From IMG/VR virus record IMGVR_UViG_3300032265_002598, positions 1-64,000 of that record: a DNA stretch of 64,000 bases; one strand, given 5' to 3'. A program made the translations under genes and the position numbers. This DNA is from a virus. Its lineage: Duplodnaviria > Caudoviricetes. Positions 17,734 through 34,858 of this stretch are shown here, one piece after another (position 1 is the first letter of the stretch; every line of letters begins with the position of its first letter). The notes beneath the pieces are model-generated. The model did not search any database. It was not told where the DNA came from and saw nothing but the letters and a program-made list of their open reading frames with translations.

Positions 17734-17758
17734 TAAGTCGTTACCAGCACACCACTTA
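17734..17758. repeat. family A single 25-bp box
   Basis: TAA-GTCG-TT-N7-CA-CCAC-TTA. Confidence 0.6.
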
Positions 17759-17828
17759 CGTCTCATTGTATCGTCACTTACGTCAAGTGTCTACACCCTA
17801 AGTACGAGATTCTTTGACAAACTTTCCG

Positions 17829-17906
17829 TAAGTCGTTGGTACCAAATAACTTACAAAAATTGCGGCGGGCCGGGTTTTCCCTAAGTGCTTTATTGATAAG
17901 GGTTTA
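17829..17906. repeat. family A bipartite 78-bp element, copy 1
   Basis: Two TAA-N4-TT-N7-AA-N4-TTA boxes 53 bp apart with GC-rich linker. Confidence 0.9.
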
Positions 17907-17925
17907 AGTCAAGTGGTCTAGGTAC

Positions 17926-17963
17926 AAAAAAAAGAACCGCCACCCATTGCTGAGTGGCGGCTC
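17926..17963 (-). terminator. intrinsic terminator after DUF932 gene
   Basis: GAGCCGCCACTCA-GCAA-TGGGTGGCGGTTC-TTTTTTT. Confidence 0.92.
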
Positions 17964-17988
17964 CCAAGTCAACCCCCATTGCGAGGGA

Positions 17989-18939
17989 TTAGAGTGCTTG
18001 AGCGAACTCCATAGCCTTCTCCAACGCTTTCGTGTTGTCGTTGGCGTTGAGTCCGAACCACAGGCTGTCGAGACGGTTATCTTCCGTTCGACCCTTGTTG
18101 TAATTCAGATACTCGTTGTAGCCGTTGTACGCAGCCCACCAAGTTCCACGAACACCCGTCGCACTCTGCTTCGGGCCTTCGACCAGATTCAGAATCTCGT
18201 CCATGATGTTTCTGGTACGAGTCTTGATCTGATCGTCCGGTGTACCGTCAATGTCAAGCATCACCTTGACATACCGACGAACATCGGCCTGATTGAAATT
18301 CTTGGACGCAAGGAATTTGAACTGCTCCGCAGTTGCTTCAAACTCCATGTTGATGTTGTCCATGATATCTCGCACGTTTTCCAGATTGGTCTTGCTGGAA
18401 CGTGTGTGACGAATCCGAATCAGCTTGGAACCACTGCTCTTGCTATGGGCCATTGCCATAGTGTTAGCACACACAACGCGGATCGGCGTATAGCCGACAC
18501 GGATAGCGGTCGTGCCATCGTGCGAGTTGCTGAGAAGAATAAACTTCCCAACCTCGTCACCCTTCACGATCTCGCTATTGTCGCGGTTCAGTTGGGCCAG
18601 CACCCAAACCTTCTGACCGCTGTGGAGCGAACCAGCAGTATGCAATGCACACTCGCCAGCGTCCAGAAACGGCTGGAACCAATCGAACGCTTCGCTGTTT
18701 TGCAGCGGAGTGTATCGTGGGCCGACAACGCCCAGAATACTGTGGTCTGTCTTGCGATAGGTCGCACGGGCCGGAACCGGCTCGCTGTCCACCGTAAACA
18801 AATCCTTCAGACCGACTTCCCAATCCAAACCGGCAGCGGTCATCGCTTCCGAAACCGTGGGAGCCTCGTCGAGCTTGTTGCCCAGACCGTGCCACGGGGT
18901 CGCACCAACAAACATCATCTGTTCAACTGCATGAGCCAT
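17989..18939 (-). CDS. DUF932 domain protein (phage/plasmid-like protein)
   Basis: Start MAHAVEQMMFVGATPWHGLG after AAAGGG; AGSLHSGQKVW, LLSNSHDG, TPIRVVCANT, GTWWAAYN. Confidence 0.92.
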   Translation of the reverse strand: MAHAVEQMMFVGATPWHGLGNKLDEAPTVSEAMTAAGLDWEVGLKDLFTVDSEPVPARATYRKTDHSILGVVGPRYTPLQNSEAFDWFQPFLDAGECALHTAGSLHSGQKVWVLAQLNRDNSEIVKGDEVGKFILLSNSHDGTTAIRVGYTPIRVVCANTMAMAHSKSSGSKLIRIRHTRSSKTNLENVRDIMDNINMEFEATAEQFKFLASKNFNQADVRRYVKVMLDIDGTPDDQIKTRTRNIMDEILNLVEGPKQSATGVRGTWWAAYNGYNEYLNYNKGRTEDNRLDSLWFGLNANDNTKALEKAMEFAQAL

Positions 18940-18982
18940 AATCATCCCTTTCGTGTTACTGTTCAATCGTTCTACTCCACTC

Positions 18983-19011
18983 ATTCTACAGTATGTTATC
19001 GTCACTGTCAA
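18983..19011 (-). promoter_or_regulatory. sigma70-type early promoter
   Basis: TTGACA-GTGACGATAACATACTG-TAGAAT. Confidence 0.88.
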
Positions 19012-19041
19012 GCGAAAACTTTGGAAAAAATTTCCTTGTCG

Positions 19042-19119
19042 CAAGTCGTTGGTGTGTAAGCACTTGCGTCAAACGCGGCCGGCCGACCTTTCCCTAAGTC
19101 TAATCAGGATAAGGGTTTA
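19042..19119. repeat. family A element, copy 2
   Basis: Two 25-bp boxes, 53-bp spacing. Confidence 0.9.
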
Positions 19120-19609
19120 CATAAGGGTTTAGAAGAACTGTCCCGAACTGCTTCTCAAAATATTTAGAATTGGAAGCATTGAAAGCACACTCCTCACCCA
19201 TGTAGAAATATGCACCAATACATTTTGCTCGCGGAGTATCAAAATGAATACTGCCAATAATATGTTTAATTGTATCACCAGAGCAAATCAAATCATCCAC
19301 AATAACATACCGAGATGGAGATACTCCTTCGATATAAAATTGACTATACCGTCTTTCATCCTTACGAACAACGATAATATTCTTATTGAGAATCTCCGCA
19401 ATCTGTGGCACTACCATCAAACCACTTACGCCACAACAAGCAATACTATCAAAATCATTCTCAATCTTACGCAGAGAACAGACAGCCTTGATAATCACAC
19501 CATTCCGATATTTGTGATTTAATACTCGGCTAGTATGAGCAGCCCCTTGAATGATTTTACCATCTGGGGTACGCCGAAAGTCATCAAGCTCTTGCTGGAA
19601 AGCGTTCAT
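19100..19609 (-). CDS. type I phosphoribosyltransferase
   Basis: GVSGL, VVRK, YVIVDDLICSGDT PRPP-binding motif. Confidence 0.88.
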   Translation of the reverse strand: MNAFQQELDDFRRTPDGKIIQGAAHTSRVLNHKYRNGVIIKAVCSLRKIENDFDSIACCGVSGLMVVPQIAEILNKNIIVVRKDERRYSQFYIEGVSPSRYVIVDDLICSGDTIKHIIGSIHFDTPRAKCIGAYFYMGEECAFNASNSKYFEKQFGTVLLNPYVNPYPD

Positions 19610-19611
19610 AA

Positions 19612-19693
19612 AGTGTGTGGTTGGATTTGAACCAACAGCCCGTTACAAGAAAGGATAATATATTAGGGTCTAGTCCCACCTAGAAGCACACAC
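19612..19693 (-). tRNA. atypical tRNA-like RNA (undetermined; possibly Thr-UGU-derived)
   Basis: Perfect 7-bp acceptor GTGTGTG/CACACAC, T arm GTTGG-TTCAAAT-CCAAC, 5-bp D stem; 32-nt central region lacks a canonical anticodon arm. Confidence 0.6.
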
Positions 19694-33232: not shown

Positions 33233-33481
33233 TCAGGCAAAATCCTCTTCACCAAAGAAATCATCGAGCCATTGATCGTCAGTCTCGATATGATCCTCAG
33301 CATCCCCCATAATGGGGTCCCAACCTTCGCCATCGTCAAGGCCGGGAATGTAGTCGGCTTCCATGCTATCGTCTGCAATGATCGTGCAATGCTCACCACA
33401 CTGCGAGCAAATCTCATGATCCACATTGCTTTCAGCATTGCAGCAATCGGAAACGTATAAGGTATTCTTTTCCATTTTCAT
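33233..33481 (-). CDS. zinc-finger + hyper-acidic tail protein
   Basis: SDCCNA...ICSQCGEHC followed by a D/E-rich tail. Confidence 0.75.
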   Translation of the reverse strand: MKMEKNTLYVSDCCNAESNVDHEICSQCGEHCTIIADDSMEADYIPGLDDGEGWDPIMGDAEDHIETDDQWLDDFFGEEDFA

Positions 33482-33613
33482 TTTCTCTTTTCTTTCTTGT
33501 TCTCTTTTCTCTTATATCGACATTATACAGTAGATTCTGAAACATTCAAGCAAAATCCAAAAAGATTTATGTCAAGAGATTTTGACAAAACTTTTCATCA
33601 TTTTCTATACGAT

Positions 33614-33672
33614 TGGCATACCATTTGCCCTATGCAATTATCGTGCCAAACTTTTTTGGCATGAAATTTGCT
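33614..33672. promoter_or_regulatory. triple sigma54 site cluster (+,-,+)
   Basis: TGGCAT-ACCAT-TTGCC (+), TGGCACG-ATAA-TTGCA (-, perfect consensus), TGGCAT-GAAAT-TTGCT (+). Confidence 0.75.
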
Positions 33673-33711
33673 GTGTGTTAAGATAGGTAAGATTGGGCCA
33701 AAAACGTGTCG

Positions 33712-33789
33712 TAAGTCATTGCAGCATAAGCACTTACGACGAGCCGGCCGCCGCGAATTTGACGTAAGTCCTTTATCCATAAGGGTTTG
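33712..33789. repeat. family A element, copy 14
   Basis: Two 25-bp boxes, 53-bp spacing. Confidence 0.9.
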
Positions 33790-34111
33790 CGTCAAGCCGG
33801 CCAGTATACAAGCGTATACCCTACAGGATAGCGTATAGCTCACCTAGTAGAGTACATGCCCTATATGCTAGAACAGTTAGCAGTATACAGGCGATCAGGT
33901 CTACAATTATCATACACACGCCTCTTCTTTAGCTTGGAGAGATTCAACAAGAGCCCAACATTCATTGAACGTGATATGTCGGGCGATTACCACCCCACCA
34001 TACCACACTTCATATCGATCCCCTGTACGATTGGAAGTATTCCAGTAGATCATTTTCTTTTGCATGGCTTGTATCCTCTTTTCCGTATTGTATACGTTGT
34101 CCGTTTAGGTG

Positions 34112-34300
34112 TCAAGCGGTAGCCAAATAATTGCAAGAAACACACTTGTCGAGATACATTGAACGATATCCAACATTCTCGATTTTCAACGTGAACAACA
34201 GGCGATATCCTTCCATATACTTGACGCTCACGATTTCCCCAACAAACTTTTCACCCGTAGCATATTCGACCGAGACGTTGTATCCGATTTCCATTTTCAT
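34112..34300 (-). CDS. small beta-rich protein, paralog of 30678..30857
   Basis: GYRSMYLDKC shared motif. Confidence 0.75.
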   Translation of the reverse strand: MKMEIGYNVSVEYATGEKFVGEIVSVKYMEGYRLLFTLKIENVGYRSMYLDKCVSCNYLATA

Positions 34301-34399
34301 TTCCTTTTCTTTATCGTTCGTTTCTTGTTTCTGTATTATACATATCGTCTTTTGAGTGTCAACAGCTTGAACCTTACAATATCGTAAGGTTCGCCGGCC

Positions 34400-34633
34400 T
34401 TACGGAAGATAGGCTTCATCTACAACATAACCCATTTCGTCAATTTCAATCCATCCACCATCGTCAAGAAATCCGATTTCTCCGTCAATGCAGATTTGGT
34501 TGTATCCACTCTCACGAACCTTTTCTAGCAGATCGCCAGCAAATGCAACCTGATTCACCAGAGTATCCATTGAACCTCTGTTGAGCAGTTCAGTCAGTTC
34601 AGCCACAGTATTCAGTACGATCATGTTTTTCAT
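34400..34633 (-). CDS. hypothetical protein
   Basis: Start MKNMIV after AAGGA; downstream of promoter near 34668. Confidence 0.7.
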   Translation of the reverse strand: MKNMIVLNTVAELTELLNRGSMDTLVNQVAFAGDLLEKVRESGYNQICIDGEIGFLDDGGWIEIDEMGYVVDEAYLP

Positions 34634-34718
34634 TTTCTTATCCTTTTCTTTTTTCTCTTGTGCTTTCATTATACAGTATTTATCGACCATTTCAATAGAA
34701 AAAATAAAAAATTCCAAA

Positions 34719-34767
34719 ATATAATTTCATGCCAAATAATTTTTTTCTTTTTGGCATACCACTTGCG
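34719..34767. promoter_or_regulatory. sigma54 sites (degenerate -, good +)
   Basis: TGGCAT-GAAAT-TATAT (-), TGGCAT-ACCAC-TTGCG (+34752). Confidence 0.6.
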
Positions 34768-34780
34768 TTAAAACTTGACG

Positions 34781-34858
34781 TAAACCATTGGCACATAAGC
34801 ACTTAGGACGAATTTTCGGGATAGAGATCTTCATAAGTCCTTTGTTTATATACCTTTA
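34781..34858. repeat. family A element, copy 15 (degenerate right box)
   Basis: TAA starts 53 bp apart. Confidence 0.8.

Follow-up and report, generated by a model that had tools for sequence, protein, structure and literature searches.

A twin-palindrome DNA element repeated upstream of promoters in an uncultured freshwater phage

Positions 1-64,000 of the IMG/VR virus record IMGVR_UViG_3300032265_002598 (201,067 bp; genome G000) form the stretch analysed here (the window), which carries 15 copies of a 78-bp element composed of two 25-bp palindromic boxes. With moderate confidence, the element is interpreted as a twin operator, built into a mobile regulatory cassette, for a lineage-specific putative DNA-binding factor. 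The spacing of its boxes is conserved among relatives and their sequence shows no RNA-type covariation; the element is linked to promoters, inserts together with them, and in a sister phage (G005) is replaced at orthologous junctions by a palindrome of another type (type 2, that of G000 being type 1). The source is an uncultured freshwater phage of about 201 kb, whose record has direct terminal repeats and a GC content of 34%.

Anatomy and distribution of the element

The 15 copies had been reported in a first-pass annotation of the window, which described two boxes at a constant 53-bp offset joined by a GC-rich linker. All were recovered at the same coordinates, each with its boxes exactly 53 bp apart. 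A degenerate 78-bp pattern (at most one mismatch) matches 14 of the 15 loci, against 0.00 expected from 100 dinucleotide-preserving shuffles; the copy at 19042 has more mismatches than the pattern allows and scores well with a position weight matrix (PWM). A PWM scan of the whole genome (201,067 bp) recovered no copies beyond these 15, which lie between 17.8 and 34.9 kb and in every case score higher on the minus strand; a scan for single boxes returned 14 pairs at exactly 53 bp and two solitary boxes (17734-17758 and 17102-17126). The GC-rich linker is borne out as well, the elements containing 13 of the 15 CGGCCG sites of the genome, along with 8 of its 9 GGCCGGCC sites.

The minus strand is the coding strand of the element region, with all eight tRNAs, the recognisable genes (DUF932, PRTase-like protein, GP88-like and Kyano_Gp96-like) and approximately 30 strong sigma70-like promoters. 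Read on this strand, a unit consists of the end of a gene or tRNA, box A, a 28-bp linker with a GC-rich core, box B, an A/T-rich tract, a promoter, and the next genes. The order of element, promoter and genes given by the annotation thus holds when read on the minus strand, but the box that it had numbered first is the promoter-proximal one. The upstream stop codon lies 2-36 nt before box A, or within it.

Pattern scanning and terminase-linked loci yielded 324 unique copies in 83 related IMG/VR loci. Across these copies, TAA (positions 1-3), TT (8-9), AA (17-18) and TTA (23-25) are near-invariant in both boxes, the N4 stretches between them are semi-conserved and the N7 is free, giving the core consensus TAAGTSCTT-N7-AAGSACTTA. 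The boxes are usually bordered by TTGNCG and CGNCAA, which extends each into a palindrome of about 37 bp, and the central 14-16 bp of the linker are G/C-rich and variable in sequence. The outer half-sites differ systematically from the inner ones (TAAACCCTT upstream, AACACTTTA downstream), and the element is therefore polar. Its orientation is shared with the locus in 267 of the 299 copies from multi-copy loci (267 vs 32, or about 89%).

The box spacing is also kept among relatives: in 2.4 Mb searched with perfect boxes, approximately 215 unique close pairs include 159 at 53 bp, 12 at 52 bp and 5 at 54 bp. The exceptions are lineage-specific, with whole contigs in which all elements are spaced at 52 bp or at 41-42 bp; the 41-42 bp form has lost the inner flank hexamers and is roughly one helical turn shorter.

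No near match to the phage was found among GenBank phages, and the closest TerL of a cultured phage is about 25% identical (Bacillus siphoviruses). IMG/VR has more than 595 contigs that encode a TerL 77-98% identical to that of the phage, some of them complete genomes of 190-230 kb, and the phage therefore belongs to a large uncultured clade. The element marks a large, abundant and wholly uncultured clade of freshwater phages with genomes of about 200 kb. In a scan of bacterial genomes, the element matched only contigs of freshwater metagenome-assembled genomes (MAGs) with inconsistent taxonomy (L251-L258; labelled Gammaproteobacteria, Planktophila, Alphaproteobacteria, Methylococcaceae and Planctomycetota). 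Because these labels are mutually inconsistent, the contigs are probably mis-binned phage DNA and not evidence of a host.

Promoter linkage and cassette exchange

A TTGACA-type promoter lies 30-42 nt beyond 10 of the 15 elements, with an A/T-rich tract between, which upholds the annotation's placement of the copies between gene cassettes and upstream of sigma70-like promoters. The promoters downstream of the elements have the form TTGACA, a spacer containing CGATA, and TAnAAT. In G000, the gap between the end of box B and the -35 hexamer is 30-31 nt in six copies and 39-42 nt in four, resulting in box centres near -78/-131 or -89/-142, respectively. Such a promoter with its A/T-rich tract follows 174 of the 324 family copies, and 235 have either a promoter or a sigma54-like box (TGGCAY-N5-TTGC) downstream. 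The distance from element to promoter peaks at 20, 30-31 and 41 nt in the family; a formal test of helical periodicity in this distance was not sharp, and the copies are non-independent. The distance to the downstream -35 thus falls into classes and that to the upstream stop codon is unconstrained.

The 15 elements and the two solitary boxes, numbered and described in the direction of minus-strand transcription, are as follows.

Element 1, 34781-34858, minus strand: most degenerate copy; the reverse complement of a sigma54-like box follows 14 nt later
Element 2, 33712-33789, minus strand: sigma54-like boxes 40-98 nt downstream
Element 3, 32054-32131, minus strand: sigma54-like box 14 nt downstream; promoter 31911-31938
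Element 4, 31000-31077, minus strand: sigma54-like box 15 nt downstream, then a CCTTAC-N6-GTAAGG palindrome, then promoter 30898-30925
Element 5, 30123-30200, minus strand: sigma54-like box 15 nt downstream; promoter 30010-30038; stop codon of the upstream open reading frame (ORF) within box A
Element 6, 28999-29076, minus strand: promoter TTGACA-16-TAGAAT at 28941-28968, 30 nt past box B; left flank of a cassette found only in G000
Element 7, 28301-28378, minus strand: right flank of the same G000-only cassette (28379-28998); TTGCAA...TAGAAT promoter from about 39 nt downstream
Element 8, 27365-27442, minus strand: promoter 27305-27333, 31 nt past box B
Element 9, 26502-26579, minus strand: promoter 26432-26460, 41 nt past box B
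Element 10, 25194-25271, minus strand: promoter TTGACT-17-TAAGAT from 30 nt past box B
Element 11, 23928-24005, minus strand: promoter 23858-23886, 41 nt past box B; the orthologous junction of G005 has a type-2 element and a decayed type-1 box
Element 12, 23247-23324, minus strand: starts 7 nt past tRNA-Arg; promoter 23188-23216, 30 nt past box B
Element 13, 21248-21325, minus strand: a weak CGATA-spacer promoter begins 30 nt downstream; upstream edge adjoined by a 307-bp gene found only in G000
Element 14, 19042-19119, minus strand: between the PRTase-like and DUF932 genes; upstream stop codon within box A; promoter 18983-19011, 30 nt past box B
Element 15, 17829-17906, minus strand: last copy; preceded by an intrinsic-terminator hairpin at 17932-17965; promoter 17765-17793
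Solitary box, 17734-17758, minus strand: GACG/CGACAA flanks; starts 6 nt past the -10 hexamer of promoter 17765-17793
Solitary box, 17102-17126, minus strand: 3' flank and the -35 region of a CGATA-spacer promoter overlap

The two solitary boxes were considered as core-promoter operators, and this was rejected because the two G000 cases do not generalise to relatives. The CGATA motif, 3-5 nt after the -35, is common to many promoters (TTGACA-n-CGATAnTA...TAnAAT) at 17-35 kb of the window and in G005, and is present in 8 of the 10 promoters directly downstream of elements; no third element type was found upstream of CGATA-spacer promoters. A further palindrome, (GA)ACCTTAC-N6-GTAAGG, lies directly upstream of the -35 in at least six minus-strand promoters between 30040 and 34400 (e.g. 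those starting at 34362, 33205, 31938, 31614, 30925 and 30038).

The sigma54-like boxes of G000 are as follows.

Seven boxes, plus strand, starting at 30093, 30970, 31982, 32025, 33614, 33657 and 34752 (span 30093-34766): TGGCAY-N5-TTGC
Two boxes, minus strand, 32002-32016 and 33634-33648: an element lies 38-64 nt upstream

These nine are the only ones in the genome and all fall within 4.7 kb, approximately 0.3 being expected. Four of the seven on the plus strand end 14-15 nt before an element, and for the five elements at 30-35 kb the reverse complement of the box comes first and the promoter lies further downstream. In 2.3 Mb of relatives (loci L005-L204), 233 matches were found at the N5 spacing vs 5-20 at N3, N4, N6 or N7, with the consensus TTTGGCAC(R)(R)N(A)TTTGCT. 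Most sigma54-like boxes read antisense into an element; in G000, 10 of the elements are without one.

Comparison with relatives ties the element to the gain and loss of cassettes, as the annotation's suggestion of cassette shuffling had it. Four related genomes contain 15, 15, 17 and 25 elements, with cassette order largely kept. The cassette at 28379-28998 (a promoter and a 178-aa ORF) is present only in G000, with an element on each side; G002, G003 and G004 have a single chimeric element there, the upstream part of which agrees with element 6 and the downstream flank with element 7. In G004, two genes whose ends overlap by 4 nt in G000 and G003 are separated precisely by a 153-bp insertion made up of an element, 21 nt, a CGATA-spacer promoter and a leader. 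G001, G002, G003 and G004 all carry an extra element and about 570-860 bp where G000 has a fused cassette. Of the homology breakpoints, 25% are no more than 15 bp from an element vs 9% expected, with breakpoints shared between comparisons. The element and its promoter behave as a single insertable unit. Several indels are bounded by an element on one side only. Since the cassette of about 150 bp is repeated 15-25 times in direct orientation, it may serve as a homology patch for the insertion, deletion and reshuffling of cassettes.

The TerL of G005 is 83% identical to that of G000, and its genome is without intact type-1 elements. In the equivalent region it has instead 18 copies of a type-2 element (L211/L212, 21.9-41.9 kb), which consists of CTGCCA-N3-TGGCAG, a 14-bp GC-rich core and the same palindrome again, at a fixed spacing of 29 bp and 22-25 nt upstream of the same type of promoter as type 1. 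Type-2 elements occupy the same orthologous junctions as the type-1 elements of G000, for example between the PRTase-like and DUF932 genes, upstream of the GP88-like gene, and after the orthologue of 24008-24391. At this last junction the end of the upstream gene, the downstream promoter and the leader all align and the element between them has been exchanged, with a decayed type-1 box beside the type-2 element. Wholesale replacement of sites at conserved positions is known from the stoperators of heteroimmune mycobacteriophages (PMC6550527). Because the sites are replaced wholesale at conserved junctions, the sequence comparison argues for a cognate, lineage-specific trans-acting factor. Such replacement would be the signature of a factor co-evolving with its sites, and is otherwise documented mainly in temperate-phage immunity systems.

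The same observations bear on whether the element could act solely as a protein-dependent, stoperator-like transcription roadblock, its proximity to promoters being merely a matter of cassette packing. The elements lie 2-36 nt past the upstream stop codon or overlap it, the scanned stretch has two convincing terminator hairpins vs approximately 30 strong co-directional promoters, and the elements are oriented and lineage-specific as stoperators are (PMC6550527). Against this, it is the distance to the -35 that falls into classes (30-31 and 39-42 nt in G000, and 22-25 nt in type 2) and the distance to the stop codon that does not; in addition, element and promoter were carried together in the 153-bp insertion. 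A roadblock as the only function is rather unlikely on these grounds, although it overlaps with the twin-operator interpretation.

Cassettes flanked by elements, and the chimeric element at one joint, could also indicate a dedicated site-specific recombination site (attC- or res-like), in which recombinase palindromes surround a GC-rich crossover core and cassettes are captured or excised. The arrangement of sites around a core and the 53-bp centre-to-centre distance resemble subsites I-II of gamma-delta/Tn3 res. Neither a serine nor a tyrosine recombinase was found in the genome, however, and the complementarity of box A and box B does not exceed that due to the consensus, so attC-type folding is not indicated. 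The cassettes are also each equipped with a promoter, many indels have an element at just one end, and a direct repeat of about 100-170 bp suffices for ordinary homologous recombination, as proposed for the promoter-early stem-loop (PeSL) cassettes of T4-type phages (PMC2839356). A dedicated recombination site is consequently very unlikely. A related and bolder proposal, that the twin palindromes and GC core are the recognition and crossover sites of an integron-like cassette-exchange platform run by a recombinase or DNA-binding factor of a novel family, is itself unlikely; if it were true, the switch from type 1 to type 2 would amount to an enzyme and all its sites being replaced together.

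The precise 153-bp insertion between two genes, the variation of copy number among relatives, and ends that resemble terminal inverted repeats (TTGACGTAA ... TTACGTCAA) would suit a selfish miniature inverted-repeat transposable element (MITE- or Correia-like) with an outward promoter, spreading without serving the phage. The copies are nevertheless confined to one region, about 89% co-oriented with transcription, one per junction and at a set distance from the promoter; strong position-specific constraint acts across the 324 copies, another palindrome takes the place of the element at orthologous junctions, target-site duplications are not apparent, and a search result for a transposase is lacking. 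Little credence is given to a selfish element as a result.

A double-stranded DNA site and its putative binding protein

The annotation had taken the element for a site of DNA-protein contact and not for an RNA hairpin, and covariation analysis agrees. Among 70 diverse aligned copies, 71.2% of cells are paired vs 71.0% after shuffling, a value reached or exceeded by 200 of 500 shuffles. For each putative stem pair, the Watson-Crick fraction is what column composition alone predicts. The 45 top mutual-information pairs are all at most three positions apart, save for one weak long-range pair that is 0% Watson-Crick. The GC-rich core and linker fold no better than shuffled sequence; the boxes fold about 3 kcal/mol better, equally on both strands. 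A scan for terminators flagged no element, a U-tract was not found at the elements, and within the scanned stretch the coding strand has just two good intrinsic-terminator hairpins, at 17932-17965 and 35386-35412. Absent covariation, a GC core that folds like shuffled sequence and the absence of a U-tract point to a dyad-symmetric double-stranded DNA motif, not to a hairpin or terminator.

Two structural candidates were examined and dropped. An RNA or single-stranded DNA hairpin had been suggested by an impression of plus-strand G.U wobbles and a bulged A, which fell away, the wobble bias favouring opposite strands in boxes A and B. The GC core as a terminator stem showed a weak palindromic tendency only at l12-l17, with an impossible 2-nt loop, and folds like shuffled sequence. 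Action at the RNA level more broadly would make the element a minus-strand terminator, attenuator, RNase III-type processing site or 3' stabiliser, or else the 5' leader of plus-strand sigma54-driven transcripts. The element is positioned as a PeSL stem-loop is, each box is more stable than shuffled sequence by the 3 kcal/mol given above, and sigma54-like boxes point into four to five elements. The extra folding energy is equal on both strands, however, as expected of a DNA palindrome, and with no covarying stem pair, no U-tract, a negative terminator scan and a core whose stem would close on two nucleotides, an RNA-level role is highly improbable.

The annotation had linked the AA-N4-TTR half of the box to the consensus of the host nucleoid protein IHF. 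The AA-N4-TTA of the box does match the 3' part of that consensus, and box B often reads CAA-N4-TTA. This link was not supported by closer comparison: the match is trivial, the WATC part is variable, symmetric palindromes of 25-37 bp stand against asymmetric IHF sites, no HU/IHF homologue was found in the phage, and an unrelated palindrome at the junctions of the sister phage fits a dedicated factor better, although the hosts of the two phages may differ. A binding or decoy site for IHF, HU or Fis is accordingly given hardly any weight.

A dyad-symmetric double-stranded DNA motif is the established signature of an oligomeric DNA-binding protein. Dyad symmetry without RNA covariation therefore makes the element a putative site of such a protein. 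In the preferred interpretation, the element would be a recognition module of two dyad-symmetric operators, five helical turns apart with a GC-rich core between them, for a sequence-specific, oligomeric (dimer-of-dimers type) and lineage-specific factor that is probably encoded by the phage. Set at a fixed distance upstream of the A/T-rich tract and the sigma70-like promoter, it would make up with them a single regulatory cassette placed between gene cassettes. Once bound, the protein would regulate the adjacent promoter, by activation or repression, or act as a roadblock that shields the promoter from read-through out of the upstream cassette.

Family searches of G000 found no resolvase, tyrosine recombinase (PF00589), HU/IHF, XRE-type helix-turn-helix (HTH) protein, ParB or sigma54 activator (PF00158). 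ORFs conserved in four type-1 genomes and absent or divergent in the type-2 genome G005 were also profiled as candidates (66 ORFs). A basic 76-aa protein (29095-29325, minus strand), which has no family match and is 92-100% identical across four related genomes, more so than the terminase, was dropped as a candidate binder because it is present also in loci without type-1 elements. The 68-aa ORF downstream of a solitary box was dropped because its product is acidic. A sigma70-family sigma factor is encoded at 167376-167510 (minus strand; L281), with a region-4 match of E = 8.6e-14 in a 194-aa open frame.

Several points weigh against the twin-operator interpretation. The binding protein was found neither by the family searches of the genome nor by the profiling of type-1-specific ORFs, and those of the 66 that were tested have no DNA-binding Pfam match. 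For about a quarter of the copies, neither a promoter nor a sigma54-like box could be recognised within 90 nt. Copies from related genomes are not independent, which inflates the statistics on distances and breakpoints; the enrichment of breakpoints is moderate in any case, and several indels have an element at only one of their two ends. The 29-bp spacing of type 2 is not a whole number of helical turns, and same-face phasing is therefore no general rule.

If the twin-operator interpretation is right, the clade gains a testable cis-regulatory grammar, in which one DNA site is present in 15-25 copies, tied to promoters and exchangeable as a unit. The two element types would be ready reciprocal probes for fishing out the binder.

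The element region (17700-34900) is also a GC island, with 43% GC vs 33% in the rest of the genome; 42% remains once elements and tRNAs are masked. GC content at third codon positions is 0.27-0.62 for genes inside the region vs 0.19-0.33 outside, and the island is present in all four genomes examined (G000, G002, G003 and G005). Early-gene codon adaptation or a recombination-linked bias are possible causes. Relative to base composition, G000 is strongly depleted of GCGC (53 vs 168 expected), CGCG (36 vs 168) and TCGA (225 vs 631), with no avoidance of GGCC or CCGG. Within the island, the DUF932 gene (52% GC) has long ORFs open on both strands, 17947-19059 (plus) and 17989-19044 (minus), the former being a shadow ORF. 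An eighth, weak tRNA-like sequence (Rfam, 35 bits; not called by ARAGORN) at 25863-25934 (minus strand) sits at the 3' end of an ORF-free stretch of about 490 nt.

Comparison with known systems

The annotation had recognised no described element with this geometry. That stands for the element itself; the system as a whole, on the other hand, closely parallels the PeSL cassettes of T4-type phages and the stoperators of mycobacteriophages. The element is PeSL-like in its evolution and stoperator-like in its distribution and lineage specificity, and lacks one defining feature of each.

Several more distant systems share parts of the layout. Among enterobacteria, bacterial interspersed mosaic elements and repetitive extragenic palindromes (BIME/REP) are palindromes of high GC content that form hairpins and owe part of their action to RNA. 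They too are repeated composite palindromic elements in short gaps after genes, but the palindromes here are A/T-rich and without a hairpin signal, only the core being GC-rich. Integron attC sites differ in that box A and box B do not covary here, PF00589 is absent from the genome and the cassettes carry their own promoters. Measured against the asymmetric IHF consensus (WATCAANNNNTTR), the site conserves only AA-N4-TTA, varies in WATC and is dyad-symmetric, and measured against an intrinsic terminator it has neither the GC-rich hairpin nor the U-tract.

Upstream activating sequences of sigma54 promoters are paired palindromes 80-150 bp upstream of a -24/-12 promoter, served by a cognate AAA+ activator. 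Of the sigma54-like boxes of G000, the two on the minus strand have an element 38-64 nt upstream, whereas the seven on the other strand point into the element; 10 elements lack a box, and PF00158 is absent. Further parallels are the p4 sites of phi29, the KorB OB sites of IncP plasmids and the C1 operators of P1, which are inverted repeats near many promoters under one global regulator, with cooperative binding to paired sites spaced in helical register. Compared on site anatomy alone, repeated inverted repeats near many promoters are common to all, and the present element differs in its geometry (palindromes of 25-37 bp, 53 bp apart, with a GC-rich core) and copy pattern, with no sequence similarity.

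In Cluster A mycobacteriophages (L5, Bxb1), each stoperator is one asymmetric site of 13 bp to which the monomeric immunity repressor of a temperate phage binds (PMC6550527, PMC9283540). As with stoperators, the element consists of tens of copies of one protein-binding site (a putative one here) in short intergenic gaps, mostly oriented with transcription, with a consensus that differs between related lineages at syntenic positions. Stoperators, however, are spread genome-wide and mostly away from promoters, whereas the element is limited to one 17-kb region and a set distance upstream of promoters; the 13-bp asymmetric site is replaced by twin palindromes of 25-37 bp, and neither a repressor-like HTH nor lysogeny genes were found in the phage.

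PeSLs are small cassettes that recur between genes and carry a strong sigma70-like promoter preceded by an A/T-rich tract (PMC2839356, PMC4122927). The present cassettes share this organisation and likewise cluster in a hyperplastic region, where small accessory genes and ORFans lie and indels are motif-bounded; in both systems a cassette with a motif on each side in one phage has a single chimeric motif as its counterpart in a relative, an inserted motif comes with a promoter, and neither system is known to have a dedicated recombinase. Excised cassette mini-circles are a further feature of PeSLs. The difference lies in what accompanies the promoter. In PeSLs it is a short G/C stem-loop shown to terminate transcription, and here it is a 78-bp twin palindrome with near-invariant TAA/TT/AA/TTA positions and a fixed 53-bp spacing, without covariation or U-tract and thus without the terminator stem-loop, in a phage unrelated to T4. 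The mobile regulatory cassette model would thereby extend past T4-type phages, to a cassette in which the promoter is partnered by a putative protein-binding site in place of a terminator hairpin.

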